A stretch of DNA of 20,286 nucleotides from an uncultured Deinococcales bacterium (GTDB lineage: Bacteria; Deinococcota; Deinococci; Deinococcales; JAAFIG01): positions 1 through 20,286 of the forward strand of contig CAXTTL010000071.1 of the NCBI GenBank assembly GCA_964247135.1, read 5' to 3'. Positions 39 to 20,286 of the stretch are shown here, one piece after another. The notes beneath the pieces are model-generated. The model searched no databases. It was not told the DNA's origin and worked only from the letters and a program-made list of their open reading frames with translations. The translations under genes and the position numbers were made by a program. The first letter of the stretch is position 1; the number at the start of each line of letters is the position of its first letter.

Positions 39-407
39 ATGAAAACCGCTGTAAATAACCCTCGAGCAGATGCAAGCAATGTTTTACATAGCCCAATACT
101 GCTGCATCAACTCGGTTCAATTGACCTCACAGGAGCCGAACTCGAGTACGGAGAACGTCAAATCAACATTTTAAACGGCAAGCTCGGACGCATCAACCCA
201 GAAACCGGTTTGGCGAACGGTCATTTGAGTGTTATCAGTCATACCAAACCCAGCTTATTCTCGAACAAGGCACGCATCGGATGGCGAAATCTCGAGTTTG
301 AACTGATGATGATCTCAATTCAGGAATTGAGCCTGCAAGCCGAATTAAAACTCAAATTTGTGGCGCGTTGTATTTCACTGTCGCAAACAAAACGTTTTTT
401 CTCGTGA
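39..407 (+). CDS. Hypothetical protein (about 122 aa; frame is open from the window edge, so the start is uncertain)
   Basis: Open frame from position 3 to TGA at 405-407; first ATG at 39; two CTCGAG read in-frame as LE; no recognisable motif. Confidence 0.4.
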   Translation: MKTAVNNPRADASNVLHSPILLHQLGSIDLTGAELEYGERQINILNGKLGRINPETGLANGHLSVISHTKPSLFSNKARIGWRNLEFELMMISIQELSLQAELKLKFVARCISLSQTKRFFS

Positions 408-460
408 TTATTTTTCCGTGATTATTTTCTTCGTGTCTGGATGACCAGATGCAGTTTTTG

Positions 461-507
461 GGCAGCACCAAGACCTCCCGCTTGGTGCTGTTGCCTATGG
501 CAGCACC
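461..507. repeat. Intergenic inverted/direct repeat with alternative hairpins, possibly a terminator between convergent genes
   Basis: CAGCACCAAG (463-472) pairs perfectly with CTTGGTGCTG (481-490); GGCAGCACC occurs at 461 and again at 499. Confidence 0.55.
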
Positions 508-534
508 TTGGGTTTTGATTGACAAATTGCGCCA

Positions 535-921
535 TCAAGTTTGGGCTTTCACCGCCGTGACACGCTCGAGGATTAAACCCAAGCGCTCTTTACCAAAAGC
601 CCGTTTTCCCTCGAGCAACCCATTCTCGCCGGCGTGCAAGTGAAACTCGAGATGCCCGCCCATGACGCGCAAATGAATGCCTTTGAGGGGGTCTTGCGGG
701 GGCGAAACGCTGGCAATCACGACAGCCGTGCCGTTGAGAAGACCGATGCTGGCGCTTTGCACGGTGGTCGGCAGCGGGTAATCGCGTTCCATGCGGTAAA
801 TGTACTGCGTGAAATCGGACTCTTTGTCAAAGCGCAAACCCTTGATTGCCGCCCAGTCGCGCATCCACTCGAGCAGTTGCACCCATTGTTGATAAAACAC
901 CGCATCAGTTACGTGAGCCAT
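535..921 (-). CDS. nqo15: NADH-quinone oxidoreductase subunit 15 (frataxin-like complex I accessory subunit)
   Basis: 128 aa; YQQWVQLLEWMRDWA..KGLRFDKESDF..YIYRMER.Y.LPTT and the His-rich HLEFHLH strand closely match my recollection of Thermus thermophilus Nqo15. Confidence 0.9.
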   Translation of the reverse strand: MAHVTDAVFYQQWVQLLEWMRDWAAIKGLRFDKESDFTQYIYRMERDYPLPTTVQSASIGLLNGTAVVIASVSPPQDPLKGIHLRVMGGHLEFHLHAGENGLLEGKRAFGKERLGLILERVTAVKAQT

Positions 922-953
922 TCTGGATTCAATCTACCACCTCGAGCCAGTTT

Positions 954-2138
954 TCACGAGTGGTTGGTGGCTCGAGGGTCTTTGAATCTAAAATCGAATT
1001 CTGATGAAACTCGAGCTTTGATTTCGACGCGGTTGCGCCCTGAAAGCTTGGCGCTGTACAGGTTTTCATCGGCTCGGCGCATCAGGTCATTGGTGCTTTC
1101 AAGGGGCAACAGGCTGGCAACCCCAAAACTGGCGGTGACCTGACCCGTTTTAAACTTGTGTTTTGCCAAGGTTGTTCTTAAAGTTTCGGCTTGAATCCGA
1201 GCTTGCTCGAGGGTCGCATGGGGAAGCAAAATCAAGAATTCCTCGCCGCCCCAGCGCCCCACACTGCCCAGGTTGCCCAGAGTCTTTTGAAAAACCTGAG
1301 TGAGTTCTTGCAGCACGGCGTCGCCTGCATGATGACCGTACAAGTCGTTGATGCTTTTAAAATGGTCAATGTCGAGCAAGATCACGCTAAAAGTACGTTT
1401 TTGATTCTGACACGCCTGCCATTCACGTTCCAAAGAGTTGTACATTTGCCAGCGGTTCGCCGCCCCCGTCAAGGGATCGGTGCTCGAGCGAATTTGTTCG
1501 ACCGCCAAGAGGTCTTTGGTCAGTGCCAGGACATACGAAAATGCCAGAAATGCCCCCGCCAAGGAAAGTTGACCGATCAACAAATCAATCAAACCCGATC
1601 TGGCAGGTGTGGCAGGCATTGACATGATCTTGACGGTATCCAAAGTCAGCATCGCACCAAAGACAATCAAAGCGGCGCGTAATGCCGTGCGGGTGCTCAG
1701 CATGATGTATGCCATCAGACCAATCAATGCGATTGAACTGTACGTTTCATGGAAGACCGCCGTGACCGCCGTTTCGTTTTGTGCCCGAAACAACGAATAT
1801 GCCGCACGCGACAAGATAAAAATTGCCGAGTACCAAAAGCCAAAACGCTCGATCTGCCCAATTTGAACTCGAGGGTTGAGGTTCAAAGCAATATTTGTTG
1901 CAGTGCAGAGCAGCAACACGACAAACAACATTTTGAGCACAAATTCACTGGTGTTGAAAAATCCGACCGCAATTCCAGGAAATCCTGCAAGGCAAACCAG
2001 CAAATACGCCCGCCGTTTGAATCCCGCCAAACGGGACTCTTGGGCGCTTAAACCTTCGGTGGCTTGAAGTTTCGTGCTCAATGGGTGCTCCAACTCGAGC
2101 CTAGCACCGCTTTTGAATTTCCTGGGGGCAGTTTGCAC
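954..2138 (-). CDS. Membrane-anchored diguanylate cyclase (GGDEF domain)
   Basis: About 6 hydrophobic N-terminal helices, then TDPLTGAANR, LLDIDHFKSINDLYGHHAGDAVL, RWGGEEF, ADENLYSAKLSGRN. Confidence 0.93.
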   Translation of the reverse strand: MQTAPRKFKSGARLELEHPLSTKLQATEGLSAQESRLAGFKRRAYLLVCLAGFPGIAVGFFNTSEFVLKMLFVVLLLCTATNIALNLNPRVQIGQIERFGFWYSAIFILSRAAYSLFRAQNETAVTAVFHETYSSIALIGLMAYIMLSTRTALRAALIVFGAMLTLDTVKIMSMPATPARSGLIDLLIGQLSLAGAFLAFSYVLALTKDLLAVEQIRSSTDPLTGAANRWQMYNSLEREWQACQNQKRTFSVILLDIDHFKSINDLYGHHAGDAVLQELTQVFQKTLGNLGSVGRWGGEEFLILLPHATLEQARIQAETLRTTLAKHKFKTGQVTASFGVASLLPLESTNDLMRRADENLYSAKLSGRNRVEIKARVSSEFDFRFKDPRATNHS

Positions 2139-2191
2139 ATCAGGTTTGATCAGCTTACGATCTTGATTCTGTTTTGGGCGTAGAATAAGGT

Positions 2192-4087
2192 GTGGAACTC
2201 GAGCAGGCAGGTTTAATCCCCACCCAACCAGGCGTCTACATTTTTCGCACGCCGCACGGTCGCGTGATTTACGTCGGCAAAGCCAACAACATCAAAACCC
2301 GCATCAGCCAGCATTTTAAATCTGGCGGCAAATCCAGCCGCATCACCCGAGATGCCGGCAGCCTCGAGTTCATCACCACCCAAAACGAGGTCGAAGCCTT
2401 GATTCTCGAGGCGAACCTCATCAAGCAGCACCGTCCACGTTACAACGTGCTGTTAAAAGACGACAAGCATTACCCGTTTTTAAAACTGACCAAAGAAGCC
2501 TTCCCGATGCTGGTCGTGACGCGCAAAGTCATCAAGGACGGCGGCAAATATTACGGACCCTACCCAGATTCCAGGGCGGTCTGGCGTGCCAAAAACCTGA
2601 TTGACACGACCTTTCCGCTTCGCAAAAACTCTGGCATTCCGTTCACGCCGCGCAAACGCCCGTGCCTGAATTACCACATGAAACGCTGCCTCGCGCCGTG
2701 CGTCGGTTTTGTCACGCCCGAAGATTATGCTCAGGCTGTGATCGACGTGACCCAGGTGCTCGAGGGCAAAGCCGCCGATGTCATGACAAAACTCAAACTC
2801 GAGATGAAAGAAGCCGCATTGCGTCAAGAATTTGAACAGGCGGGCGCGATTCGTGACCGACTCGAGGCGGTGCAAAAACTGTTCGGCACAGATCAGGTTG
2901 CACTCAACACCGACCTCGAGGACATGGATTTTCTGGGCGTGGCGCAAGCCGGTGAGTACGCAATGGTGCAACACTTTCAGATGCGGGCGGGTCGCGTCAT
3001 CGGGCGCGACAAACGCTTTTTGACGGGCGCTGAGGACGCGACGCTCGAGGAGATTTTGAAAGCCTTCATGCAAGATTATTACGGCGTGGCGATGCAAGTT
3101 CCGCCACTGGTGCTTATTTCAGTCGAATTTGAGGACGCAAGCGTCTGGCAAGAATTTTTGTCCTCTCGGGCGCACCGCAAAGTTGAACTGCGTTTCCCGC
3201 AACGCGGCGAAAAAGTCGATTTGCTCGAGATGGCAACCCGCAACGCTCACACGGGCTTGGAAGCCGAACTGGCGCTCCTCGAGAAACGCGGCGAGAATCC
3301 TGGTTTGGAGGCTTTAAAAGAGGTTCTGGCGCTTCCCGAACGCCCGTGGCGCATCGAAGGTTACGACAACAGCAACTTGTTCGGCACAAACATTGTCTCG
3401 GGCATGGTGGTCTTTGAAGGTGGACGCTCGAGAAAGGGCGAGCACCGACGCTTTAAAGTCAAAGGCTTGGACCACCCCGACGATTACACCGCCATGCGTC
3501 AAACCATCACACGGCGCTTTACGGGCGGCTTGTCCGACAAACTGCCGATTCCAGATTTACTGATGATCGACGGCGGTCACGGGCAAGTCAACGCGGCGCT
3601 GGATGCCCTGCGAGAAGTTGGACTCGAGATTCCTGTGGTGGGATTAGCCAAACGCGAAGAAACCATGATTCTGCCCAGCATTTACGGGGCGCAGTGGTGG
3701 CTGAAATCTGGCACCATCCTCGATCAAAAACGCGAGATCAAACTGCCCGAAACGCACCCCGCTTTAAGAATGTTAATTGCCGTGCGCGACGAAGTTCACC
3801 AGTACGCCATCACCTACCACCGCAAACTTCGCGCCGATGCCATGATGACCAGCATCTTTGACGACATTCCAGGCGTCGGACCCAAACGCCGCGAGGCATT
3901 GCTCGAGCATTTCACATCACTCGAGGAACTTCGTGCGGCAAGACTTGAAGTGATCGCTCGAGTGCCAGGGGTTGGCTTGACGGCGGCGCACGCGATCAAA
4001 ACGCATTTGGGAAATGGAACTGGGGCGGTGGTGACGGACGTGGGGAATGCTGCCAAAGAAGCGAAAGATGGAATCTCGAGCGTTTGA
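2192..4087 (+). CDS. uvrC: Excinuclease ABC subunit C
   Basis: GIY-YIG N-terminus (PGVY..IYVGKA), [11 protein letters not shown], Cys cluster [18 protein letters not shown] domain, [17 protein letters not shown], HhH motifs IPGVGPKR and VPGVG; GTG start. Confidence 0.98.
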
Positions 4088-4132
4088 AACCCAATCTTTG
4101 AAAATCAAAACGTAATTTAGAAGTTTACAACA

Positions 4133-4582: not shown

Positions 4583-4651
4583 AACATTTGGATTCAATGC
4601 TGCCTTCGATTCAGGTGCTCGAGACACAATAACTGCACTTCTCGAGACAGC

Positions 4652-4680
4652 AAAAACCTCCTATTGTCAAGGAGGTTTTT
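4652..4680. terminator. Bidirectional rho-independent terminator
   Basis: AAAAACCTCCT-attgtca-AGGAGGTTTTT lies between the convergent DUF3592 gene and trxA. Confidence 0.85.
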
Positions 4681-4698
4681 GGTCTTAAAACTCGGGTT

Positions 4699-5390: not shown

Positions 5391-5932
5391 GCGATTCTTC
5401 AATTTGGACGCCTGGCGACGGCGAGGTGCAAATCACTGCGGCACAAATTCATGCTCGGATTCTCGAGTTGGGTGCGCAGATTACCAAAGATTACACGGGT
5501 AAAAAACCGCATTTGATCTGTGTTTTAAACGGCGCGTATCATTTCATGTCCGACCTCACCCGAGCCATCGAATTGCCGCTGACCATCGATTTTCTGGCAG
5601 TCTCGAGTTACGGCACGCAAACCAAAACCTCTGGCGAAGTGAAACTCGTTAAAGATTTAAGCCTGCCGCTTCACGATCTGGACGTGATTTTGGTCGAGGA
5701 CATCGTGGACACGGGTTTGACCATGAATTATCTGCTCGGTTATTTGGGCGGGCGCGGTCCTGCCAGTTTAAAAGTCGCGGCATTACTGTCCAAACCCTCG
5801 AGGCGCAAAGTCGAAGTGCCAGTCGATTACTTGGGATTCACGATCCCAGACGCTTACGTGTACGGTTATGGCTTGGACCGCGCGCATCACGACCGCAACA
5901 TTCCGTTTATCTCGAGCATCAAATCTGATTAA
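5387..5932 (+). CDS. hpt: Hypoxanthine phosphoribosyltransferase
   Basis: PRPP-binding motif VILVEDIVDTGLT, VSSYG loop, YVYGYGLD, RNIPFI. Confidence 0.97.
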   Translation: MSDSSIWTPGDGEVQITAAQIHARILELGAQITKDYTGKKPHLICVLNGAYHFMSDLTRAIELPLTIDFLAVSSYGTQTKTSGEVKLVKDLSLPLHDLDVILVEDIVDTGLTMNYLLGYLGGRGPASLKVAALLSKPSRRKVEVPVDYLGFTIPDAYVYGYGLDRAHHDRNIPFISSIKSD

Positions 5933-5933
5933 T

Positions 5934-6379: not shown

Positions 6380-8491
6380 TTACAGTGAGGTTGTCAAAGC
6401 TTGGATATTGACACCCACTCCACAAAACGCCGCATTGCCCGTCAAATCATCCAGCAGCAATTCATCGGTCAAATCGTTGATGCTGATTCCCGCATTCTGG
6501 TGTGCCACCTCGAGCTTCACGCCTTCACGAGCGTGACCAAAGCCGTGCGGAATGCTGACCACTCCAGGCATGATGTTCTCCGTGATTTCGGCTGGCAGTT
6601 CAACGCTGCCGACCTTTGAGCTAACCCGCACGCTCGAGCCTTCAAGAATTCCTTTGTGCGCGGCATCGCTGGGGTGAATCATCAGCGTGCAACGGTTTTT
6701 GCCGCGCACCAGCCGCTCCGCGTTGTGCATCCAAGAATTGTTGCTGCGCAACTCGCGGCGTCCAATCAAGACCAGTTCGGGGCTGGCTTGCTCGAGATCA
6801 ATTCTGGCTCGAACAAGATCGGCGATCAACAAGTCTGGCGCGAGTTGCAAGCGCTTGTTCGGTGTCAACAATCGTTCTGGCAATCGTGACTCGAGTGCGC
6901 CCAAATCCAAACCGTGCGGGTTTTCACGCAATGTCTCGAGGCTCAATTTGTATGTTCCAGTTTTTAAACCCAACTCGAGTTTTTCGGCTGGGTCACGCGG
7001 CGCTTTCAGCGTGCCTCCAGGCTCGAGCGTCAGGCGGTTGCGCAGTTCCTCGAAAATTTCCCAATCGTATTTTGCGCCCGTCGTTTTGGGCAGCGTCGCC
7101 TCGGAATATTTTGCGTGGTTGGAAACCGCCAGATGATGAAAGATCAAATCGTAATGCGCCGTCTCGAGTCCGGTGGCTGGCGGTAAAATGATGTTTGCAT
7201 GACGCGTGGTTTCGTTGATGTATATGTCAATCGCCACAAAAAACTCGAGTTTCTCGAGCGCCGTCTCGAGCCTTGAACCGTTCGGGGTGGACAGCACCGG
7301 ATTGCCCGAATTCGTGATGAAGGCTTTGATCTGACCCTCGCCTAGGGTCAACATTTCTTCCGCCATCGCCGCCACAGGATATTCCCCGTCAAATTCTGGC
7401 AGACCGCGAACTCGAGTTTGAGCACGGTTGAAAATATTCTCCTTGGTTTTGGCGCGGATCAAATCAATTGCGGGCGTGGTCAGCATCGCGCCGCCAGCCC
7501 GATCAAAATTGCCCGTGACAATGTTCAGCGCCGTGACCAACCACTGACTCGAGCCGCCAAACGCCTGGGTGCTCAGCCCGATTCGACCATACGCCACGGC
7601 TGAGGGCGCATTCGCAAAATCTCGAGCCAAACCCCGAATCGCCTCCACAGTCCAACCGATGCGAGCGCTGACCCGTTCTGGTGTGAACTCGCGCACGGCT
7701 TCACGCAGCCCCTCCAAACCATCCGTAAAATCCGCCAGTCGCCCGAGTTTCACCAGGTTTTCGGCAAAAATCACCTCGAGCATCGCCAGCAGCAAAAACA
7801 CATCCGTGCCAGGACGAATAAAATGATGCTCGCTCGAGATTGCCGCAGTTTCGTTGCGGCGCGGGTCAACCAAAACAATTTTGCCACCACGCTTTTTGAT
7901 CTTCTCGAGCCGCCGCTTGACGCCCGCCGCCGTCATCAGGCTGCCGTTGGACGCCAGCGGATTCGCGCCCAAAATCAGCATGAAATCCGTGCGGTCAATG
8001 TCAGGAATCGCAACCAAGAGCGGATGCCCGAGCATTTGCCACGCCGCGAAATGATGCGGCAATTGATCCGCGCTGGTTGCCGAAAATTTGCTGCTCGAGC
8101 CGAGCGCTTTAAAAAATCCGCTGGCGGTCAGCATCGTTCCAGAATTGTGAACGCTCGGATTGCCCTGATAGACGCCCACCGCGTCCTTGCCGTATTTGGC
8201 TTGCACGGCTTTCAAACTCGAGACGACCTCATCAAAAGCCTCATCCCAAGAAATTTGCTGCCAGCCGCCTTCGGTACGGCGCACCGGAAATTTAAGTCGG
8301 TTCGGATCGTTGTACACATCCTCGAGCGCCGTCGCCTTCGGGCAGATGTGCCCCTTCGAGAACGAATCAAGTTCATCCCCCCGAATCGAAACAATCTTGT
8401 CCCCCTCAAGCTTGATCTCGAGTCCACACATCGCCTCGCACAGATTGCAAGTCCGATACGCTGTTCGCACCTTAGAAGATTCGGTTTTCAT
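6380..8491 (-). CDS. Molybdopterin (bis-MGD) oxidoreductase catalytic subunit with an N-terminal 4Fe-4S cluster
   Basis: CNLCEAMC...GHICPK, ISWDEA, GANPLASNG, VDPRRNETA, IRPGTD, DIYINETT..A..ILP, NSWMHN, IHPSDA; no Tat signal. Confidence 0.93.
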   Translation of the reverse strand: MKTESSKVRTAYRTCNLCEAMCGLEIKLEGDKIVSIRGDELDSFSKGHICPKATALEDVYNDPNRLKFPVRRTEGGWQQISWDEAFDEVVSSLKAVQAKYGKDAVGVYQGNPSVHNSGTMLTASGFFKALGSSSKFSATSADQLPHHFAAWQMLGHPLLVAIPDIDRTDFMLILGANPLASNGSLMTAAGVKRRLEKIKKRGGKIVLVDPRRNETAAISSEHHFIRPGTDVFLLLAMLEVIFAENLVKLGRLADFTDGLEGLREAVREFTPERVSARIGWTVEAIRGLARDFANAPSAVAYGRIGLSTQAFGGSSQWLVTALNIVTGNFDRAGGAMLTTPAIDLIRAKTKENIFNRAQTRVRGLPEFDGEYPVAAMAEEMLTLGEGQIKAFITNSGNPVLSTPNGSRLETALEKLEFFVAIDIYINETTRHANIILPPATGLETAHYDLIFHHLAVSNHAKYSEATLPKTTGAKYDWEIFEELRNRLTLEPGGTLKAPRDPAEKLELGLKTGTYKLSLETLRENPHGLDLGALESRLPERLLTPNKRLQLAPDLLIADLVRARIDLEQASPELVLIGRRELRSNNSWMHNAERLVRGKNRCTLMIHPSDAAHKGILEGSSVRVSSKVGSVELPAEITENIMPGVVSIPHGFGHAREGVKLEVAHQNAGISINDLTDELLLDDLTGNAAFCGVGVNIQALTTSL

Positions 8492-8557: not shown

Positions 8558-9280
8558 GTGAAAGAAAATACCGCCCCCCAAACGTTTCGTTACTTTGACC
8601 TGATCCTCGCCGCGTTTGCCGTGATTCTGGTCGTCTCCAACATTGCCAGCACCAAACTTGTGAGTGCCACCATTGGCAATTGGAAACCCACTTTCGACGG
8701 CGGTACGATCCTGTTCCCGCTGACCTACATTTTTGGCGATGTCCTGACCGAAGTCTACGGTTATGCCAGGGCTAAACGCGTAATCTGGTTTGGAATGGCA
8801 GCCAACCTCTTTGCCAGCCTGATTTTTGCGCTGGTGGTGGTGCTTCCGACTGACCCAAACAGTTTTACCAAAGGCTCATTCGAGGCAGTCCTTGGCTTTG
8901 TGCCCCAGATTGTGCTTGCGAGTTTGGCAGCACTTTTCGTTGGGGAATTCTTGAATTCCTATGTGCTCGCTAAACTCAAAATCATGACCAATGGGCGTTA
9001 TCTGTGGGTGCGAACCATTGGCAGCACCTTGATCGGAGAAGGCGCTGATACCCTGACATTCTCGTGGCTTGCCTTCGGCATTGGTGCGAACGCGATGAAA
9101 GCAAACGAATTATGGAATTTAATTGCAGTCGTTTATTTTTATAAAGTCGCGCTCGAGGTGCTACTCACGCCACTCACGTATGTTGTGGTGGGCATCCTAA
9201 AACGTGCCGAAGGTGTGGATGTTTATGACCACAAAACAAACTTTAATCCATTTGTGTTCCGCGAAAAGGTTTCGACGTAA
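8558..9280 (+). CDS. yhhQ: Queuosine precursor transporter (YhhQ/VUT family); true start is probably the GTG at 8558
   Basis: SNIASTK, DGGTILFPLTYIFGDVLTEVYG, ASL.A..VGEFLNSYV..KLK, RTIGST..G...DT, YK...E...TP. Confidence 0.93.
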   Translation: MKENTAPQTFRYFDLILAAFAVILVVSNIASTKLVSATIGNWKPTFDGGTILFPLTYIFGDVLTEVYGYARAKRVIWFGMAANLFASLIFALVVVLPTDPNSFTKGSFEAVLGFVPQIVLASLAALFVGEFLNSYVLAKLKIMTNGRYLWVRTIGSTLIGEGADTLTFSWLAFGIGANAMKANELWNLIAVVYFYKVALEVLLTPLTYVVVGILKRAEGVDVYDHKTNFNPFVFREKVST

Positions 9281-9330
9281 AGCTCGAGCTTTCTTTTCAA
9301 GATTCCAAACTCGAGTTGTAAGATAATGTC

Positions 9331-11851: not shown

Positions 11852-13582
11852 ATGACCGAAAAACCCTGGCTTCAACATTATGACCAACACGTTTCACACG
11901 AGCTTCACTACCCCGAAGCCGCCATTACAGGTTTGCTCGAGGGGGCAGCCAAACGCCAGCCAAACCGCATGGCGCTCGAGTTTCTGGGCTTCACCATGAA
12001 TTACGCTCAACTCTGGACGGCGGCGCAAAAATTTGCCACGGCATTGCAACAGCTCGGCGTCAAAAAGGGTGATCGGGTGGCGGTCATGCTGCCCAACAGT
12101 CCACAATTTGTGATCTCGTTTTACGGCGCAACCCTGGCGGGGGCGGTGGTCGTCAACACCAGTCCGTTGTACGTGGCTCGTGAACTCGAGCATCAACTCA
12201 AAGATTCCGGCGCGGAAACCCTGATTTTGCTCAGTAACTTTTTTCCGCGCTACCGTGAAATTGCTGCGAACGTGCCCGTCAAGCGCGTGATCGTCACGGG
12301 CATCGAAGATTATTTGCCGTTTCCCAAAAATGTTCTGTACCCGATCAAAGCCAGACGCGAAAAAACCTGGGTCAGCGTCAAACCAGAGCAACACATTTTT
12401 TTCTTCAAGCACCTGCTCGAGAAATACCCAGCCCAGCCCGAAAATGCTCGAGTCACCGCCGATGATCTGGCGTTGTTGCAGTACACGGGCGGCACGACCG
12501 GAACGCCCAAAGGGGCAATGCTAACGCACCGAAATTTAATGGCGAACGTCTTTCAAGCCGCCGCCTGGACGGCATACGCCAAAGACGGGCAGGAGGTGGT
12601 GCTCGGCGTGATTCCGTTCTTTCACGTTTACGGCATGACCGTTGCCATGAACCTGGCAGTCAAATACGCCGCCAGCATTGTGCTGCTGCCGCGTTTTAAC
12701 ACCAAAGACGTTTTGGAGGCAATTCAAAAACACCGTCCGACCATGTTCCCAGGTGTGCCAACCATGTACATTGCGATCAACAATGACAAAGACGTGGCAA
12801 AATACGACCTCTCGAGCATCAAAGCCTGCATTTCTGGGGCGGCGCCCTTGCCGCTCGAGGTGGCGCACGCGTTTGAGGGTTTAACGGGAGGACATCTGGT
12901 CGAGGGTTACGGCTTGACCGAAGCCAGCCCGTGCACGCACAACAACCCAATCTTCGGCGAAAAACGCGAGGGCAGCATTGGAATGCCGATGCCTGGCATG
13001 GATTGTCGCATCGTCAACGAACTCGGGCAGAGCCTTGGGGTCGGCGAAATCGGCGAGCTGGCGGTGAGCGGTCCAAACGTCATGCAAGGCTACTGGCAGC
13101 GCCCCGAGGAAACCGCCAAGTGCATCCGCGACAGCTTGGACGACGGTCAAACCCCAGGGCGTTGGTTGCTGACCGGCGACATGGTGCGCATGGATGCGGA
13201 CGGCTACTTTTACATCGTGGACCGCAAAAAAGACATGATCGCCGCCAGCGGCTACAACGTTTACCCCAGGGAGGTCGAAGAAGTTCTGTACCAACACCCA
13301 AAAGTCAAAGAAGCCGTGGTGGTCGGCGTGCCAGACCCGTACCGAGGCGAAACGGTCAAAGCCTACGTGGTGTTAAAAGACGACCAAACCGCCAGCGAAG
13401 CCGAAATTCTCGAGTTTTGCAAACTCAAACTCGCGCCTTATAAAACCCCAAAGTTGCTCGAGTTTAGGGACGAATTGCCCAAAACCTTGGTCGGTAAAAT
13501 ATTGCGTCGGGCACTTCTGGAAGAAGAAAAAGCCAAAACCAAAGCACCCGCCGAGGCAAATGTTGTAGAACATCATGGTTAA
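11852..13582 (+). CDS. fadD: Long-chain fatty acid--CoA ligase
   Basis: QYTGGTTGTPKGAMLTH, PFFHVYG, EGYGLTEASP, TGD, DRKKDMI, ELPKTLVGKILRR. Confidence 0.95.
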   Translation: MTEKPWLQHYDQHVSHELHYPEAAITGLLEGAAKRQPNRMALEFLGFTMNYAQLWTAAQKFATALQQLGVKKGDRVAVMLPNSPQFVISFYGATLAGAVVVNTSPLYVARELEHQLKDSGAETLILLSNFFPRYREIAANVPVKRVIVTGIEDYLPFPKNVLYPIKARREKTWVSVKPEQHIFFFKHLLEKYPAQPENARVTADDLALLQYTGGTTGTPKGAMLTHRNLMANVFQAAAWTAYAKDGQEVVLGVIPFFHVYGMTVAMNLAVKYAASIVLLPRFNTKDVLEAIQKHRPTMFPGVPTMYIAINNDKDVAKYDLSSIKACISGAAPLPLEVAHAFEGLTGGHLVEGYGLTEASPCTHNNPIFGEKREGSIGMPMPGMDCRIVNELGQSLGVGEIGELAVSGPNVMQGYWQRPEETAKCIRDSLDDGQTPGRWLLTGDMVRMDADGYFYIVDRKKDMIAASGYNVYPREVEEVLYQHPKVKEAVVVGVPDPYRGETVKAYVVLKDDQTASEAEILEFCKLKLAPYKTPKLLEFRDELPKTLVGKILRRALLEEEKAKTKAPAEANVVEHHG

Positions 13583-14029: not shown

Positions 14030-14155
14030 ACACCATCAAAACCCGAGTTTATTGTTGTCATCAAAGGCTTGCCGAGTCATTTATGTGCACAATTCCATGA
14101 GAGGCACACTCACACGCAAAGCCCTTCAAAGCCCTAAACTGCGCTCGAGGTTTAC

Positions 14156-16507
14156 ATGAACACCGTCTTACGAATTTTAAAAATCCTTGTCGCCCTGGTC
14201 ATGGTCGCCGTGATTTCGGGCGCAGCCATCGGCGCAACATTTTTGCTGCGCTGGGGACGGAACCTGCCCGACATCAGACAACTGGATCAGTTAAGGCTTG
14301 AAGGCACGACCAAAGTTTACGCTCGAGATGGTACGGCGATGGGTGTGCTCGCGCCAACCGTCAACGGTGAACGGCTCGACCGCAGCCCAGTCAAACTCGA
14401 TGAAGTCTCGCCGCTGGCGGTGGCTGCCGTGATCGCCGCCGAGGACGCCGAATTTTTTAAGCACTTTGGTTTTAATCCCGTGCGCGTCGGCGCGAGTTTG
14501 TACCAAACTTTTTTTAAGGGCAACCAACAGGGCGGTTCGACGATCACCCAACAACTGATGCGCAACACGCTTTTAAGCCAAGAACAAACCGCCGAACGTA
14601 AAATCAAAGAATTGATGCTGTCCGTCGAGTCTGAGCGCTATTTTACCAAAGCCGAAATTTTAACCGCGTATTTAAACGTTGCCTTCTGGGGCGGCAACAT
14701 TCGCGGCATTCGCGCCGCCGCCAAATCGTATTTGGGCAAAGACCCCATCAATTTAACGATTGAGGACGGCTTGTACCTCTCGAGTTTGATTCCTTCCCCG
14801 AACGTTTTCTTTCAAAATCTCTGCCGCACCCGCGAGGGCATGAAAATTAGGTTAAAACGCATGATCGACGAAAAATGGATCACCAAACGCGAAGGTGACG
14901 CCGCTTGGCGCGTCAAACTGGTGCCCAAAGGCTGGAGCAACGTGCATTACGATAAAGACGGCAAACTGCTGGGCTGCTCGAGCGAAACCGATCCAAACCA
15001 TCCCAAATTGGTTGATCCCAAAGTCAATATTGTTCAAGAAATCCGCACATCTTTAGCGCCGTATTTCATGTACGAAATTCGCAAGATTTTAAACTCGCCA
15101 AAATACAACGACAAAGCCTTCTCCGGCGGTGGTTTGCGGGTTTACACCACGCTTGACCCCAAAGCCCAACGCGCCGCCGAACAAGCCGTGGTGAACGCCA
15201 AGCGACCTTACGGGCAAAGTGAAGCTGAAATCGCCACCGTCGGCATTAACCCCTACACCGGCGAAATTCTGGCGATGGTCGGTGGGCGTGACCAATCCGG
15301 CGCAGACCAATACAACCGCACCAACAGCTCGCAGTTCAACCGCAGTCCAGGCTCGAGCATCAAACCGCTCTTGTACACCTTGGCTATCGAAAAAAATTAT
15401 GAACAATGGAGTACCTTCTCGAACAAACCAATCTACATGTACGTTTCTGGCAATCCAGCCCAGCCTGGCTGCCAAAGAAATTATTACTGTCCCAAAAACT
15501 TTGACAACAGCATCTCTGACCCGCTTGTGCCTTTAAGAAAATCGCTCGACTGGTCACTCAATTTACCCACCATCAACTTGGCTCGAGCGGTGGGTTACGA
15601 TGCCTTTCGTGACAAGCTCCGATTGCTTGGTTTTGACGTTCCAGATCAACTCCCGATCTCGAGTCCCATCGGTGGGATTGAAGTCACGCCGCTTCAAATG
15701 GCAACCGCTTACGCCAGTTTGGTCAACGGTGGTTTCTGGATCGAACCCTCGTACATTCGGCGCATTGAAGACAGCGAAGGTCGGGTCTTGTACCCTGCCA
15801 GCGACGAAGACAAACCCTTGCAACGTCGCGTTTGGACGCCCCAAGCCGCATTCGTTGGTTTGGACATGATCAAAGGCGTTGTGTACGACCCGCCGGGTTT
15901 AAGCGAACAGCTTTCCAAAGACGCCAAAATTTCTGGACGCACCATTGCCGGCAAAACAGGCACCACCAACGACGTCAAAGACATGTGGTTTGTCGGCAGT
16001 ACCCCGACCATGACCGCCGCCGTCTGGATGGGACACGACAAACCCAAAAACATGGGCTACCGAACCTATTCGGGCGAATGGATGCCAATCATTTGGAAGC
16101 ACTTTATTGAGAATGCCCTGGCAGGAACACCTCCAGGTGCGTTCAGACAACCAAAATACATTGGCTACCGCAACATGATGGGGGTCAACATGGCATACGC
16201 CTACAGGCAAGAAAGCTTAAAACTGAGCACCCCAGCCCCAGCCGCGCCGCAAATCGAAGCCGACACCGTCACCCACCGCCCAGAAGTTTCACAATTACCC
16301 ACCAGCAATGAAGCTCGAGTGACCATTGCGCTCGACAACTGCAAACGCAACGTGGCTCAAGTTCCACCTCGAGCCGACGAGTTCACGACCACGAGTTGCC
16401 TTGTCATGCGCAGCGTGCTGGTCAAAGACCTCGAGTTGTACGACCCGAATTATCAAGCGCCAGTGCTCGCCCCAGATGGGACGACAACGACACCCAGTAA
16501 TCCGTAG
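14156..16507 (+). CDS. Class A penicillin-binding protein (transglycosylase/transpeptidase, PBP1A family)
   Basis: N-terminal TM helix; AED..F..H.G, GGSTITQQL, RK.KE glycosyltransferase motifs; SSIK, SLN, KTGT transpeptidase motifs. Confidence 0.96.
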   Translation: MNTVLRILKILVALVMVAVISGAAIGATFLLRWGRNLPDIRQLDQLRLEGTTKVYARDGTAMGVLAPTVNGERLDRSPVKLDEVSPLAVAAVIAAEDAEFFKHFGFNPVRVGASLYQTFFKGNQQGGSTITQQLMRNTLLSQEQTAERKIKELMLSVESERYFTKAEILTAYLNVAFWGGNIRGIRAAAKSYLGKDPINLTIEDGLYLSSLIPSPNVFFQNLCRTREGMKIRLKRMIDEKWITKREGDAAWRVKLVPKGWSNVHYDKDGKLLGCSSETDPNHPKLVDPKVNIVQEIRTSLAPYFMYEIRKILNSPKYNDKAFSGGGLRVYTTLDPKAQRAAEQAVVNAKRPYGQSEAEIATVGINPYTGEILAMVGGRDQSGADQYNRTNSSQFNRSPGSSIKPLLYTLAIEKNYEQWSTFSNKPIYMYVSGNPAQPGCQRNYYCPKNFDNSISDPLVPLRKSLDWSLNLPTINLARAVGYDAFRDKLRLLGFDVPDQLPISSPIGGIEVTPLQMATAYASLVNGGFWIEPSYIRRIEDSEGRVLYPASDEDKPLQRRVWTPQAAFVGLDMIKGVVYDPPGLSEQLSKDAKISGRTIAGKTGTTNDVKDMWFVGSTPTMTAAVWMGHDKPKNMGYRTYSGEWMPIIWKHFIENALAGTPPGAFRQPKYIGYRNMMGVNMAYAYRQESLKLSTPAPAAPQIEADTVTHRPEVSQLPTSNEARVTIALDNCKRNVAQVPPRADEFTTTSCLVMRSVLVKDLELYDPNYQAPVLAPDGTTTTPSNP

Positions 16508-16532
16508 CGGCACATACATAAGGCAGGGCGCA

Positions 16533-16557
16533 GTAGGGGCGCTGCTTGCTGCGCCCT
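16533..16557 (+). repeat. GTAG-type REP-like palindrome
   Basis: GTAG followed by GGGCGC-tgcttgct-GCGCCC; intergenic. Confidence 0.6.
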
Positions 16558-16571
16558 CTCGAGAGGTCAAA

Positions 16572-16979
16572 ATGCGTTTTTTTGTGATTTGTCTAATCGT
16601 TTTGTTCGGCGTTGCGTTCGCCATCGTGCCACTTGGTGCAGCCGTCGCGCCAGAAGTCCGTCAAGGTTTGACGGGCGCGTACTTTATTGCGTTCGTCAGC
16701 CCAAGCTGCCTGACCGAACAAACCAGGGCGCAACATTGGGGTGCGCTCGAGGGCACAAACGTGCTGCGGGTCGATGCGAAAGCCGTGGCTCAACCCGCCC
16801 TGCTCGAGCGTTGGCGGTTTTTGAAAGGTGAGGCTGCCACGAATCTCACCCGAGATTTGAAAGTCAGAACCCTGCCAACCACCGTCATGGTGGACCGCGA
16901 AAACCGTATTCGAGCCGTGTTTGAGGGGGTACTCGAGAAAAAATGGGTGCTCGAGAAATTGCAAGATTACGGACAATAG
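16572..16979 (+). CDS. Secreted thioredoxin-fold (TlpA/ResA-like) protein lacking a CxxC motif, 135 aa
   Basis: GAGG SD, signal peptide ending AFA, FVSPSC, and LPTTVMVDRENRIRAVFEG resembling the TlpA cis-Pro segment. Confidence 0.7.
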   Translation: MRFFVICLIVLFGVAFAIVPLGAAVAPEVRQGLTGAYFIAFVSPSCLTEQTRAQHWGALEGTNVLRVDAKAVAQPALLERWRFLKGEAATNLTRDLKVRTLPTTVMVDRENRIRAVFEGVLEKKWVLEKLQDYGQ

Positions 16980-18212
16980 TCACTCGGGCCATTCGCCGAG
17001 AAGTTCACGGTCCACGTGGTATCCAGCCGACTCGAGATGCGCAATCACCTCGCGCCCGTGCGCCTCATCGCGCACCTCGAGCACCAGTTCGACGCCAACT
17101 TTGCCAAGCGGCGCGAGCCACAAGGCGCGACGGTGAAAAATATCGATGATGTTGGCTTTCACCAGCGCCAGATGATCGACCAGTTGCGCCAGAATGCCAG
17201 GGCGGTCAATCACCGCCAGCTTTAAGAGCATGTACCGTCCTTGACGCACCATGACCTGTTCGATCACCCTCGAGAGCAGGTTGCCGTCGATGTTGCCGCC
17301 GCAAAGAAGCGCACAGACCGTATCGTTCGGCTCGAGTTTGATTTTACCCGCGATCAATGCCGCCAGTCCCGCCGCGCCAGCGCCCTCGACCACCAGTTTT
17401 GCGCGTTGCGAACAATGCACGATTGCCCGCGCAATCTCGTCGTCGCTGACCTCGAGCACCTCATCGACCAGCGCTCGAATGATCGGCAGGGTTAACTCGC
17501 CAGGGCGTTTGACCGCGATCCCATCGGCGATGGTTTGCGCCGCCGCCACCGCCACGGGCGCTCCAGCCGCCAAGGAAGGCTTGACCGCCGCACAACCCGC
17601 TGCCTGAACCCCAACGATGCGCACACTGGGTTTTAAAGTCTTGACTGCCGTCGCAATGCCAGCGATCAAGCCACCGCCGCCAATCGGCACGATCAGCACT
17701 GAAACTTCGGGCAGTGCCTCGAGAACCTCCAAACCAATCGTGCCCTGCCCCGCCATGACTTTTTCGTCATTGAAGGCGTGAACGAAAGTCAACCCGCGCT
17801 GGGTCGCCAAGGCTCGAGCGTGCGCCGCCGCATCGTCAAAGGTTGTCCCCTCGAGAATCACCGTCGCGCCGTAACCACGGGTCGCCTCGACTTTGGTCAG
17901 CGGCGCGAAACTCGGCATGACAATCGTACACGTCACGCCGTGGACACTTGCCGCCAGTGCCACACCCTGCGCGTGGTTGCCCGCCGAAGGCGCAATCACC
18001 CCTCGAGCCTTTTCTTCAGCCGTCAAACTCGAGATTTTATTGAACGCCCCACGAATTTTAAACGACCCAGACCGTTGCAAACACTCCGCCTTCAAAAACA
18101 CTGGCACGCCAAAATCTTTGGACAAGGTTTCATCGTGCAGCATTGGCGTCAGCGTGATCACATCGCGCACCGTTTCTCGAGCGGCACGAACATCGGAGAG
18201 GGTTATGGTCAT
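16980..18212 (-). CDS. ilvA: Threonine ammonia-lyase (short form with one C-terminal ACT domain)
   Basis: KAECLQRSGSFKIRGA, SAGNHAQG, PIGGGGLIAG, GGNID, DRPG ACT domain. Confidence 0.93.
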   Translation of the reverse strand: MTITLSDVRAARETVRDVITLTPMLHDETLSKDFGVPVFLKAECLQRSGSFKIRGAFNKISSLTAEEKARGVIAPSAGNHAQGVALAASVHGVTCTIVMPSFAPLTKVEATRGYGATVILEGTTFDDAAAHARALATQRGLTFVHAFNDEKVMAGQGTIGLEVLEALPEVSVLIVPIGGGGLIAGIATAVKTLKPSVRIVGVQAAGCAAVKPSLAAGAPVAVAAAQTIADGIAVKRPGELTLPIIRALVDEVLEVSDDEIARAIVHCSQRAKLVVEGAGAAGLAALIAGKIKLEPNDTVCALLCGGNIDGNLLSRVIEQVMVRQGRYMLLKLAVIDRPGILAQLVDHLALVKANIIDIFHRRALWLAPLGKVGVELVLEVRDEAHGREVIAHLESAGYHVDRELLGEWPE

Positions 18213-18283
18213 TTGGATGTAGTGTACTTGAAGATTTCATACCTCGAGCGCATTGTTTTTGCGCGGAGACAATTGCTCTTTCT

Positions 18284-18322
18284 CCTCTCATCCCCAGCCC
18301 TTCTCTCCCAGGAGAGAAGGGC
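18284..18322. repeat. Intergenic purine/pyrimidine palindromic element
   Basis: CCTCTCATCCCCA followed by the perfect 12-bp inverted repeat GCCCTTCTCTCC-ca-GGAGAGAAGGGC. Confidence 0.6.
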
Positions 18323-18361
18323 GCTTTGTTTATTTCTCGAGGGACGAAATTTCGTGTTTTG

Positions 18362-19102
18362 CTACTCGCCAATGGCTATCTGCTCCAAAAATTCGAGTGT
18401 CAATCTGTTAAATTCCGTACTGCGGTCAAACATCAAATTGTGCCCAGCGCCAGGAATCATTTCGAGTGTGGAATTGACCAGACCGCGTTGAAGTTCATTC
18501 GCCATCTCGAGTGTGACCAGCAAATCCCTCGAGCCGTGCAACAACAACGTTGGTGTGGTGACTCGAGCTAAAATGGATGTTGGATTGTCGCGCGTTAAAG
18601 CCTGAGCCGCCGACCACAGATTGAATAAACCAGCCTGAAAACCATCGGAGAGCACCGTGGGAATAAATTCGTAGGCGCCCATGAACGAGGCTGGAATCAA
18701 CCAAGCCACGCTGTTCAGCACAGGACGGTTGACAAAAGCGCTCGAGGCTGCCAGCACCAGACCAGAAAAACAATTCGGCTCGAGTGCTGCCGCGTGCAAG
18801 CTTGCGTGGGCGCCCATCGAATGCCCAATCAACACGCAACCCTCAAGCTCTGAAGCCTTGACAAATTCGAGGATCAGGGCGCCCAAGGCGGGTAAGTCCA
18901 AAATTTTTTGTGCTCGAGCCGTACCAAAACCAGGAAGCTCGAGCACAAAGACGCGGTACTCTTTTTTGAACGCAGGAATATTTCTTGACCACCAACGCTT
19001 AGAACCACTCAGACCATGCACCAAAACAACATCGCCCTTGGCATTTTCTGAACCGTAAATATCGTACTCGAGCCATGCCGAAGAACCTTGAAAAACTGCC
19101 AC
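18362..19102 (-). CDS. Alpha/beta-fold hydrolase
   Basis: VLVHG, ELPGFG, GHSMG nucleophile elbow, GSRD acid, GAGH histidine. Confidence 0.93.
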   Translation of the reverse strand: MAVFQGSSAWLEYDIYGSENAKGDVVLVHGLSGSKRWWSRNIPAFKKEYRVFVLELPGFGTARAQKILDLPALGALILEFVKASELEGCVLIGHSMGAHASLHAAALEPNCFSGLVLAASSAFVNRPVLNSVAWLIPASFMGAYEFIPTVLSDGFQAGLFNLWSAAQALTRDNPTSILARVTTPTLLLHGSRDLLVTLEMANELQRGLVNSTLEMIPGAGHNLMFDRSTEFNRLTLEFLEQIAIGE

Positions 19103-19154
19103 AGTGCAATCATAACGCTTGTGCTCAGCTTAACTTTGGGTGTAACCTTGCCAC

Positions 19155-19260
19155 GGTCATCGGGGGAGCAACGCCAGACTCGAGAAAACGAGCATCTGAC
19201 CGCGCTGAGAATTAAACCCCAAGAACCTGACCCGGGTAATGCCGGCGTAGGGAGTGTGAC
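19155..19260 (+). promoter_or_regulatory. TPP riboswitch (THI element)
   Basis: GGGGAGC...GCTGAGA...ACCC..AGAACCTGA.CCGGGTAATGCCGGCGTAGGGA consensus directly upstream of a thiamine-binding protein gene. Confidence 0.96.
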
Positions 19261-19324
19261 GTGCAAAAACAATTTGCCACTCGAGCTGCTTTCTCAGGTT
19301 CTCCTTTCGACCAAAAGGGGAAAT

Positions 19325-20286
19325 ATGCGTAAACGTATTGCAGGTTTTGCTTTGCTAACGGCGTTCGGAATCACCACTTTGGCTTTTGGGGCAAACTCGA
19401 GTTTGACCATTGTCACGCACGATTCGTTTGATCTGGACAAGAAACTCGTGCAAGCTTTTGAAGCCAATAACAACGTTGACCTGAAATTCATCAAAGCCGG
19501 CGACGCGGGCGCGATGCTCTCCAAGCTCGTGCTCTCCAAAGCCAACCCAATCGCCGACGTTGCCTTCGGCGTGGACAATGCGCTGCTCGAGCGTGCCAAA
19601 CGCGAAGATGTCTTCCAGGTTTTTAAGCCCAAAACCGCCAAAGACCTCAACGCTAGGTACTTTTTTGACCCGACCTGGCACGTCACGCCCGTTGATTACG
19701 GTTTTGTATCGCTGAATTATGACAAAGCCTGGTTTGAAAAGAACAAACTCGAGCTTCCCAAAACCCTGTCCGACCTGACCAAACCCGCTTACAAGGGCTT
19801 GCTGGTCGTTGAAAACCCAAGCGCCTCGAGCACCGGAAACGCGTTCTTGCTGGCGACCATCAAAACCTTTGGCGAGACGGGCGCACTTAAATTCTGGAAA
19901 GCCTTGCGCGGGAATGATCTGAAAGTTGCCGCAGGTTGGGACGGCGCGTATTATACCGAATTCAGCCTCAACGGCGGCGCTCGCCCGATTGTGGTTTCAT
20001 ACGCCTCGAGTCCAGCCGCCGAAGTGTTCTACGCCAAAGACAAACCCAGCACCGCCCCCACCGCAAATTTATTGCTCCCAGGCTCGAGCTTCTTGCAAAT
20101 TGAAGGCGTGGGCATTCTGAAAGGCACGAAAAACCTTACGCTGGCACAAAAATTTGTTGAATTCATGGTGTCCAAAGAAGTGCAAGCCGACATTCCAACC
20201 CGCATGTGGATTTACCCCGTCAACAAAAACGTTGCGTTGCCCGAGATTTTCTCGTTCGCCACGATTCCAACACTTAAACAAATCTC
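19325..20286 (+). CDS. thiB: Thiamine ABC transporter substrate-binding protein (3' end lies beyond the window)
   Basis: My translation from the ATG at 19325: signal peptide, LTIVTHDSF, GDAGAMLSKL.L.K.NP.ADVAFGVDN, PVDYG, SSTG..F, VVSYASSP..E, QIEG; downstream of the TPP riboswitch. Confidence 0.93.
   Translation, partial: MRKRIAGFALLTAFGITTLAFGANSSLTIVTHDSFDLDKKLVQAFEANNNVDLKFIKAGDAGAMLSKLVLSKANPIADVAFGVDNALLERAKREDVFQVFKPKTAKDLNARYFFDPTWHVTPVDYGFVSLNYDKAWFEKNKLELPKTLSDLTKPAYKGLLVVENPSASSTGNAFLLATIKTFGETGALKFWKALRGNDLKVAAGWDGAYYTEFSLNGGARPIVVSYASSPAAEVFYAKDKPSTAPTANLLLPGSSFLQIEGVGILKGTKNLTLAQKFVEFMVSKEVQADIPTRMWIYPVNKNVALPEIFSFATIPTLKQI

Follow-up and report, generated by a model that had tools for sequence, protein, structure and literature searches.

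Background

For three decades, work on highly iterated palindromes has been confined to cyanobacteria. What causes them is still under debate; methylation-linked repair, selection and DNA uptake have all been put forward. According to a recent account, the cyanobacterial palindrome HIP1 (GCGATCGC) raises transformation efficiency, is proposed to be a broad uptake sequence, and is spaced quasi-periodically along the chromosome (PMC13756078); Elhai's model for it is methylation-directed short-patch repair (PMC4390886). Here we describe an independent case in a second phylum. The hexamer CTCGAG is a genuine highly iterated palindrome and the DNA-level signature word of a family of uncultured Deinococcales. 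It came to attention in contig CAXTTL010000071.1 (C71) of the uncultured Deinococcales assembly GCA_964247135.1; this whole stretch of 20,286 nucleotides, read on the forward strand, is called the window below.

Uptake sequences, namely the uptake signal sequence (USS) of Pasteurellaceae and the DNA uptake sequence (DUS) of Neisseriaceae, are non-palindromic words of 9 to 12 bases, present about once per kb, for which biased uptake was shown experimentally. In E. coli, very-short-patch (VSP) repair by the Dcm/Vsr couple raises CCWGG and lowers its T:G-derived neighbours; the effect is small and needs both a C5 methyltransferase and Vsr. The XhoI family of nucleases (PF04555) is named after an enzyme that recognises CTCGAG, and its homologues in the order may have the same specificity.

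CTCGAG in the window

Exactly 138 CTCGAG lie in the window, from a first copy at 61 to a last one at 20083-20088, with about 147 bases per copy. In 100 dinucleotide-preserving shuffles, the mean was 3.37 (sd 1.89, maximum 10) and 138 was never reached. There are 109 copies in the 15 open reading frames (ORFs) of the window, compared with 13.0 +/- 3.3 after within-gene synonymous codon shuffling (maximum of 200 shuffles, 23). By ORF frame, 63 copies are read as Leu-Glu, 20 lie in frame 1 and 26 in frame 2, and 29 are outside ORFs. Examples of each kind are the following.

61..20088, no strand: all CTCGAG copies of the window, with the counts and ORF frames just given
2198..2203, plus strand: in-frame CTC-GAG (Leu-Glu; reads LEQ), codons 3-4 of uvrC (ORF 2192-4087)
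3427..3432, plus strand: frame-2 copy in uvrC, CGC-TCG-AGA, Arg-Ser-Arg
3957..3962, plus strand: frame-1 copy in uvrC, GCT-CGA-GTG, Ala-Arg-Val
9279..9292, no strand: intergenic CTCGAG within the 14-base perfect palindrome AAAGCTCGAGCTTT

The original prediction, made from the letters of the window, had counted about 138 copies by hand, and its count was exact. Its codon readings were all correct (Leu-Glu at 2198, Ala-Arg-Val at 3957, Arg-Ser-Arg at 3427 and Val-Ser-Ser at 5602), and the three longer palindromes that it had pointed out, at 9279-9292, 19392-19405 and 16555-16566, are present. Among the 15 positions that it had placed between genes, 13 do lie outside the 15 ORFs, while 5073 and 19280 fall inside ORFs whose true start is uncertain.

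CTCGAG in the genome and the proteome

The assembly comprises 5,091,702 bases in 386 contigs and is 84% complete. It contains 33,925 CTCGAG, i.e. one per 150 bases or 6.7 per kb, which makes this the commonest hexamer of the genome, 24.8-fold above base-composition expectation. Every contig of at least 5 kb (297 of 297) carries at least 2.56 copies per kb, every 4-kb segment has at least five, and CTCGAG contains 62% of all TCGA occurrences. Confinement to the window, which had been named beforehand as a result that would speak against the idea, is thus not what is found: the enrichment runs through the whole 5.09-Mb genome.

Codon usage does not account for these numbers. In a gene set of 4,326 non-overlapping ORFs of at least 120 codons, obtained by simple calling, 28,560 CTCGAG were observed, compared with 3,941 after within-gene synonymous shuffling (7.2-fold) and 1,651 after whole-codon shuffling. 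The three frames hold 17,440, 4,523 and 6,597 copies, against 3,050, 324 and 566 in the synonymous shuffles, so that frames 1 and 2 are enriched 14-fold and 12-fold. As a control, these shuffles err on the conservative side, since CTCGAG has already raised the codon usage that they retain. Non-ORF DNA is denser in the word than ORFs (7.47 versus 6.50 per kb), with an observed/expected ratio of 34. The proteome bears the mark of this: Leu-Glu dipeptides number 22,677 versus 9,504 expected from residue frequencies (2.4-fold), versus 9,641 for the reversed Glu-Leu. CTCGAG encodes 77% of the Leu-Glu pairs, and the Leu-Glu frame holds 61% of the coding copies. The original prediction that the word is no codon-pair artefact, acts at the level of DNA and biases protein sequences is therefore borne out.

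Extent of the motif and spacing of the sites

The conserved word is the hexamer itself. Its flanks carry little information: the strongest preference is for A at -3 (0.37 genome-wide, 0.42 in non-ORF DNA), and the maximal frequency of any flanking base is 0.39 genome-wide and 0.42 in non-ORF DNA, unlike the extended flanks of dispersed repeats such as repetitive extragenic palindromes (REPs) or miniature inverted-repeat transposable elements. The bases on either side are complementary at 21.5% of sites genome-wide, about the chance level, so the longer palindromes around some copies are incidental.

Counts per kb are near-Poisson (variance/mean 1.12). Pair correlation over the 72 contigs of at least 20 kb revealed no periodicity beyond codon phase, and besides this a short-range repulsion and a slow trend. 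Relative to random placement, adjacent sites separated by 7-12 bases reach only 0.41 in non-ORF DNA and 0.26 in ORFs, and spacings of 61-100 bases are slightly in excess. A spacing of exactly 6 bases is absent from the genome because it would form GAGCTC, a word to which we return below.

Distribution across the order

CTCGAG abundance is a graded trait across the order, with one lineage inverted to avoidance. All 19 genomes of the family (five genera; 18 relatives and the source genome) carry 4.3-6.8 copies per kb, as expected from the suggestion, made at the outset, that the trait is lineage-wide. Named loci of the family, with GC contents of 44-60%, are enriched 3.6- to 9.3-fold over synonymous shuffles; in these loci, the three frames stand at 5.7-, 9.4- and 14.7-fold, non-ORF DNA at 31-fold and Leu-Glu at 2.38-fold.

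In the 201 genomes of the order, densities range from 0.009 to 6.8 per kb. The highest value outside the family, 3.42 per kb, belongs to Meiothermus-like genera. Named Meiothermus/Thermaceae loci are enriched 3.0-fold overall (2.5-, 8.3- and 3.5-fold by frame, 4.5-fold in non-ORF DNA), with Leu-Glu at 1.47-fold. The mention of CTCGAG-rich Meiothermus DNA that accompanied the first observation was accurate, since the excess over synonymous shuffles is found there in all frames and in non-ORF DNA.

Named Deinococcus loci show the reverse: their ORFs (393 kb) have 17 CTCGAG where shuffling leaves about 104, and their non-ORF DNA (49 kb) has none where 16 are expected. The group of genomes that we take to be Deinococcus has 0.009-0.27 copies per kb, as few as 26 in 2.9 Mb. 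These genomes avoid GAGCTC too. Despite their avoidance of CTCGAG, the XhoI-family nuclease was found in none of the 53 Deinococcus-like genomes searched.

Retention, loss and gain of sites

Sites of the source genome were compared with five congeners, at about 85% nucleotide identity. CTCGAG was intact in 343 of 440 site-pairs (78%), versus 38-45% for control hexamers, and non-coding copies were intact in 85% of cases versus 38% for controls. Third codon positions are 86.8% identical inside CTCGAG and 71.3% outside. In 40 kb aligned in at least four genomes, 268 positions have CTCGAG in at least one genome: 118 in all genomes, 71 in all but one, 50 in an intermediate number and 29 in one only. 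Control words in the same alignment are present in all genomes in 9% of cases and in one genome in 46%.

Loss per terminal branch was 0.119 versus 0.277 for controls in this first set and 0.118 versus 0.321 in a second, three-genome set (56,559 columns, with the most distant congener as outgroup; it partly overlaps the first), i.e. 2.3-2.7 times slower. In the three-genome set, 274 of 467 CTCGAG positions are common to the three species, compared with 1,740 of 8,802 for control words. The losses resemble normal decay: a single substitution separates 54 of 71 from the word (79% for controls), and 42 of these 54 are transitions. We had entertained a net decay of CTCGAG and rejected it. The apparent excess of losses in the strict sets arises because the other genomes were required to agree. 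Counted simply by presence in the three genomes, there are 80 lineage-specific sites and 113 single-lineage absences, so that gains and losses are roughly in balance.

The gains are less ordinary. Among the 29 lineage-specific sites, 25 differ at two or more positions from the commonest hexamer of the other genomes, compared with 42% of 4,025 control singletons; in the strict set, where the other genomes agree, this holds for 7 of 7 gains versus 25% of controls. Divergence in the 60-base flanks is 0.160 around gains and 0.146 around losses, against a background of 0.117, and about 40% inside the gained hexamer; in the alignments, the change is confined to the hexamer. Words at 1, 2 and 3 mismatches became CTCGAG in 2 of 200, 8 of 1,865 and 7 of 8,963 cases, and words at four mismatches in 0 of 20,040. 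All words pooled give ratios of 0.9, 12.8 and 40.6 for 1, 2 and 3 mismatches, a control that we rejected as unmatched because CTCGAG, in each of its three frames, involves a six-fold-degenerate codon (Leu, Arg or Ser). With 11 other Leu-Glu words and their reverse complements as the control, the effect is smaller and still present, at 1.1-, 8.5- and 24-fold. In the three-genome set, the rates are 1.4, 12.7, 25 and 27 times those of controls for 1 to 4 mismatches.

Twelve independent strict gains were recorded, 1 one-step, 5 two-step and 6 three-step; 11 are in ORFs and 1 is non-coding. In six of the 11 within ORFs, the change is entirely synonymous, as when Arg AGG becomes CGA and the preceding wobble base changes with it. 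The window itself has sites specific to the source genome, among them:

7411..7416, in a molybdopterin oxidoreductase gene (minus strand): CCCTGG in four congeners (3 substitutions, similar flanks); Ser-Arg-Val to Thr-Arg-Val
12447..12452: CCAGGG in three congeners; synonymous three-base recoding of Ala-Arg-Val (Arg AGG to CGA, plus wobble)
15582..15587, in the penicillin-binding-protein gene: CTAAAA in three congeners (3 substitutions); Ala-Lys-Thr to Ala-Arg-Ala

Accessory, foreign and phage DNA

Species-specific DNA is also marked. A 20-kb island (G000:C1:40001-60000), carrying hydantoinase/oxoprolinase genes and an oligopeptide ABC transporter, has 140 CTCGAG despite little DNA match in five congeners. 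By contrast, a low-GC (0.37-0.42) cassette of two genes beside ftsZ has a single copy in about 1.55 kb, and looks like a recent insertion that has yet to acquire the word.

C189, locus L097, 4077-5632, minus strand: MvaI/BcnI-family nuclease and beta-class methyltransferase cassette

The Mu-like Meiothermus phage MMP17 (MH939157) has 87 CTCGAG in 33 kb, a density like that of its host. Its ORFs hold 80, against 29.2 +/- 4.9 after shuffling, with every frame enriched. Thermus phage P23-77 has 2, and only 3 TCGA. The density in MMP17 is suggestive of an effect on any long-resident DNA and is not decisive. We had considered this phage as a means of discriminating between uptake and a process inside the cell, and dropped it: being Mu-like, it may reside in the chromosome and therefore cannot separate the two. 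At 26062-27388 of MMP17 (L355), an annotated very-short-patch-repair endonuclease adjoins a D12 methyltransferase, which is 37% identical to the SacI-partnered methyltransferase on contig C320 described below. The Vsr of MMP17, used as a query, had no match in the source genome.

Viral contigs with three clustered CTCGAG were also tried as a signature of host and virus. Among at least 80 such loci, most of the densest are GC-rich and have GAGCTC commonly too; theirs is a codon-driven pattern and not the signature of the family.

Restriction targets

The source genome treats other palindromes quite differently. GAGCTC, with the two halves of CTCGAG exchanged, has no copy in 5.09 Mb versus about 1,371 expected, and a resident SacI-type system, the classical explanation, accounts for its avoidance.

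C320, L106, 1061-2155 and 2152-2985, minus strand: SacI-family nuclease (PF09566, 29.7 bits) overlapping a D12-class methyltransferase by 4 bases

Fifteen of the 18 relatives have 3-25 GAGCTC and the other three 114-568; in these three, no orthologue of the C320 methyltransferase was found. A causal tie between the lack of GAGCTC and the abundance of CTCGAG was dropped, the C320 system being sufficient for the former.

Avoidance of palindromes is general in this genome: of the 64 palindromic hexamers, 31 fall short of 0.12 of expectation and 48 of 0.5, the rarest after GAGCTC being GGGCCC (1 copy), CGGCCG (3), AGGCCT (4), CGTACG (5) and GGATCC (7). GGCC has 380 copies (observed/expected 0.016) and CTAG stands at 0.07. 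CCSGG is at 0.07 genome-wide versus a normal 1.15 for CCWGG. Two methyltransferases of the source genome, the D12 enzyme of C320 and the beta-class enzyme of C189, belong to ordinary restriction systems for other sites. We do not regard this purging as special to the family, as the 63 palindromic hexamers other than CTCGAG, pooled, stand at 0.29-0.51 here and also at 0.43 in Deinococcus loci and 0.58 in Thermaceae loci. CTCGAG thus behaves opposite to the words that are treated as restriction targets in this lineage.

Methyltransferases, XhoI-type enzymes and Vsr

The original prediction had proposed a solitary CTCGAG methyltransferase working with methyl-directed repair, and this part of it found no support. 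The XhoI-family nuclease (PF04555) is absent from all 19 family genomes. In the order, it occurs in 6 of 201 genomes, in one of them interrupted by stop codons, and its partner, in the two of the six loci examined, is a 340-residue PF01555 methyltransferase.

L144, G021:C1:70000-82000, Thermus-like genome: XhoI-family nuclease gene convergent with that of the 340-residue PF01555 methyltransferase
L145, G105:C8:31000-41000, Thermus-like genome: the same arrangement

Thermus-like genomes carrying the nuclease still hold 0.7-1.8 CTCGAG per kb. The partner methyltransferase has close homologues (63% identity) in two genomes of other families and an orthologue in none of the 18 family relatives, where the matches are distant and at motif level only. 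A Vsr family search gave no match in the source genome, an assembly 84% complete.

The source genome has about a dozen DNA methyltransferase genes. Six of these, together with the XhoI-partner type, were used as probes over the 18 relatives; five of the twelve lay outside this cross-family probing (the C189 enzyme, a 466-residue ORF on C4, the giant of C112 and two MmeI-like enzymes). None of the seven probes has an orthologue in all family genomes, and all six from the source genome are patchy: the beta-class enzyme of C36 has orthologues in 2 family genomes and a 79% N-terminal fragment in a third, each of two C5 methyltransferases has them in 3, the C207/C4 enzyme has them at full length in 4 with a 91% N-terminal fragment in one more, the D12 enzyme has them in 6, and the HsdM-like enzyme is scattered among relatives. 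Three Pfam methyltransferase families, PF01555 and PF00145 among them, were censused in five family genomes. G011, a single-contig genome with 23,515 CTCGAG, has no PF01555 match, G008 (21,883 copies) no PF00145 match, and G015 (12,028 copies) no full-length match in any of the three. The 17 ORFs of the census include no common orthologous group, their identities being mostly 21-41%, with one pair at 82%. On balance, the probes and the census tilt against a cognate methyltransferase that accompanies the word wherever it is abundant.

A depletion of one-mismatch words had been proposed as a test of the prediction. No depletion of these neighbours is seen, and their conversion is no faster than that of control words. 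For a strong drive at the last step, the depletion was dropped as a non-discriminating test, because the decay of 34,000 sites replenishes the neighbours.

Other features of the window

The genes of the window are unremarkable and include uvrC as well as genes for a GGDEF protein, a molybdopterin oxidoreductase, an acyl-CoA synthetase-type enzyme and a class A penicillin-binding protein. The uvrC call was made on the UvrC domains present in the ORF product, whose relatives are records of uncultured Deinococcales metagenome-assembled genomes (MAGs). A repeat of another kind lies between two genes:

18270..18360, no strand: REP-like dispersed repeat, containing the CTCGAG copy at 18336

Matches of 40-90 bases to it number in the dozens in the five congeneric genomes, all of which have some. 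It is a separate element and does not account for the abundance of CTCGAG.

A proposed explanation

We propose that a pervasive, selection-like force favours the complete CTCGAG wherever DNA tolerates it, in any frame, between genes and in species-specific accessory DNA. The force would be either selection on each site or a transmission bias, and the agent a putative CTCGAG-reading protein, most plausibly acting in DNA uptake or recombination. In that case, CTCGAG would mark the DNA of kin and spread by transmission bias. An uptake, recombination or chromosome-organisation signal had been the other option offered in the original prediction, and it is the direction that we favour. Natural competence is known in Thermus and Deinococcus. 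A role of this kind has been proposed for cyanobacterial HIP1, and the analogy draws on current work (PMC13756078; bioRxiv 10.1101/2024.09.10.611283). We give the explanation as a whole, a maintained DNA-level word with a protein reading it in uptake or recombination, a probability of about one half. Its groundwork, that the word is real, acts at the DNA level, is maintained, and is not linked to a methylase in the manner of HIP1, is very probably right. The protein acting in uptake or recombination is the concrete agent that we favour, tentatively, and it may well turn out to be something else. For the complete word we infer, without a formal fit, a scaled advantage of about 3: in a simple reversible model, this value agrees with two non-coding measures, the ratio of sites to neighbours (17-40) and the loss ratio (about 0.17, from 85% versus 38% intact).

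Several observations weigh against this explanation. With regard to uptake, a 6-base palindrome at 6.7 per kb with little information in its flanks departs from USS and DUS in length, shape and density, and its spacing is close to Poisson and not even. The receptor is putative, no search for one having been made, and the host-like density in MMP17 suits any in-cell or mimicry process equally well. The counts of gains are small (the 12 strict events) and come from two overlapping data sets; they are a lead. Any simple selection or drive acting on the finished word has against it that stable one-mismatch neighbours convert at the control rate (2 of 200 in one set, 3 of 172 in the other), and that non-ORF words at 1, 2 and 3 mismatches show no gradient of abundance (observed/expected 1.09, 0.88 and 0.98). 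An excess of multi-base gains with no such gradient among partial matches is not explained by any simple model that we could devise. As to methylation, absence of the methyltransferase is unproven, as sequence does not give specificity and most of the genomes are incomplete MAGs.

Among the other explanations, codon or dicodon usage, translational selection, a dispersed repeat family, or an assembly or binning artefact would make the word a by-product. The Leu-Glu frame does hold most of the coding sites, and MAG binning relies on oligonucleotide composition, so that atypical contigs could drop out. Yet the sites exceed by 7.2-fold shuffles that keep the inflated codon usage, the other two frames and non-ORF DNA are enriched more strongly still, the flanks are near-random, unlike those of a repeat, and the trait recurs in 19 genomes that were assembled separately, including a single-contig one, as well as in named public records; for practical purposes, this explanation is refuted. 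Methylation-directed short-patch repair, in which an orphan CTCGAG or TCGA methyltransferase and a Vsr-like nuclease restore the full word, is a more serious contender, being Elhai's model for HIP1. Variants differing by one base are most numerous at the outer position (9,573, versus 8,267 and 4,572 at the inner ones), a HIP1-like bias, methyltransferase genes are many in the source genome, and MMP17, a phage of a CTCGAG-enriched host, has its annotated Vsr beside a D12 methyltransferase. This scheme is nonetheless unsupported and disfavoured because the enzymes are missing (Vsr from the source genome, the XhoI-family nuclease from 19 of 19 genomes, orthologues of its partner from 18 of 18 relatives, and any common group from the 17 censused ORFs, with the gaps in G011, G008 and G015, the methyltransferases tested being patchy), neighbours are not depleted, and one-step conversion is not accelerated. 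Deamination-type neighbours are in fact over-represented (TTCGAG 1.73, CTTGAG 1.16 observed/expected), and most gains need 2-3 changes, so that single-mismatch repair cannot make them in one step. We consider it improbable.

Two further possibilities accept that the word is real. CTCGAG might serve as a binding site for an abundant DNA-binding protein of the nucleoid, or as a self-marker spared by a nuclease of defence in a Chi-like logic, each copy being slightly advantageous. The maintenance of non-coding sites agrees with this, the scaled advantage of about 3 would suit it equally, the host density of MMP17 is in line with it, and the repulsion at 7-12 bases, with the slight excess at 61-100, is what the footprint of a protein would give. 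That repulsion could instead reflect avoidance of hairpins between two close palindromes, however; no candidate protein emerged, periodicity beyond codon phase is absent, and one-mismatch conversion is not accelerated. Such a role is unlikely, though not far-fetched. Alternatively, the sites could be installed as a unit by a multi-base event, such as templated short-patch conversion or clustered mutation, and not stepwise. The predominance of gains with at least two changes (25 of 29, and 7 of 7 in the strict set), the divergence of about 40% within the hexamer versus 16% in its flanks, and the lack of a stepwise gradient all point this way. On the other hand, the rate of gain still drops with distance (1.0e-2, 4.3e-3 and 7.8e-4, then 0 of 20,040 at four mismatches), and therefore the prior sequence matters. 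The six fully synonymous gains among 11 in coding DNA could each have passed through neutral intermediates, terminal branches are long (about 12% divergence) and the numbers small, and we know of no mechanism that would target one hexamer. We rate this origin as unlikely.

A bolder version of the explanation that we prefer, selection or transmission bias acting through a CTCGAG-reading protein, can also be formulated. CTCGAG could be a methylation-independent kin barcode of the whole order, read by a putative protein and installed by hexamer-precise rewriting of 2-3 bases, with Deinococcus having flipped to purging. This version is unlikely. If true, it would be a new kind of sequence-specific molecular drive and an experimental key to the 30-year-old puzzle of HIP1, cultured Meiothermus carrying a weaker version.

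Whatever the agent, the effect brings about 13,000 extra Leu-Glu pairs into a proteome, and the case suggests, for the enzymes probed, that a conserved cognate methyltransferase is not needed for the phenomenon. The order offers a natural dose series, from hyper-abundant through intermediate to purged, and because cultured Meiothermus and Thermus relatives carry a weaker form, binding, uptake and methylome experiments are feasible. In practice, CTCGAG distorts codon, dipeptide and k-mer statistics and thereby affects gene calling, binning and the detection of horizontal transfer, and XhoI would cut such DNA to fragments of about 150 bases.

Comparison with known systems

With XhoI-type restriction-modification (PF04555 with PF01555, in Thermus-like genomes of the order), CTCGAG shares the word recognised by the enzyme that names the family. 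The nuclease is absent from the 19 family genomes and the partner type from the 18 relatives, however, and whereas restriction targets are purged (GAGCTC to 0, CCSGG to 0.07) and a site under such a system would be avoided or neutral, CTCGAG is enriched. Dcm/Vsr repair is comparable as a DNA-repair process that alters oligonucleotide frequencies genome-wide. It differs by its small effect, its depletion of neighbours and its need for a C5 methyltransferase with Vsr, features that are not seen for CTCGAG: the source genome has no Vsr match, its C5 methyltransferases are patchy among relatives, and T:G-derived neighbours are not depleted. Like USS and DUS, CTCGAG is abundant in genes and spacers, skews peptides, is common to related species, and belongs to a kind of word that transmission bias can build up even if the cell gains nothing from it. 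Unlike these longer, sparser, non-palindromic words with their demonstrated uptake bias, it is a 6-base palindrome at 6.7 per kb.

The closest likeness is to HIP1 and the alternate cyanobacterial palindromes (PMC4390886; PMC5861425). Both are short, GC-containing palindromes, over-represented tens of times, in all frames and in intergenic DNA, clade-wide, conserved between relatives above background, with one-base variants commonest at outer positions and a debated function. For CTCGAG, the over-representation is of an order of magnitude or more, it is independent of frame and above codon-aware expectation, and conservation exceeds that of background words. The differences are that CTCGAG is a hexamer and not an octamer, belongs to another phylum, is very dense (one per 150 bases), has no cognate orphan methyltransferase common to its carriers among those probed or censused, lacks the quasi-periodic spacing described for HIP1 (PMC13756078), and is avoided almost completely by a sister lineage of its carriers. 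In the open literature, outside of which lie subscription journals and supplements, we found no report of CTCGAG over-representation in Deinococcota; a search for terms in the text of Elhai 2015 (PMC4390886) returned neither CTCGAG nor Deinococcus nor Thermus. What is new is therefore a highly iterated palindrome outside the cyanobacteria, denser than those described there and apparently free of their association with a methyltransferase.

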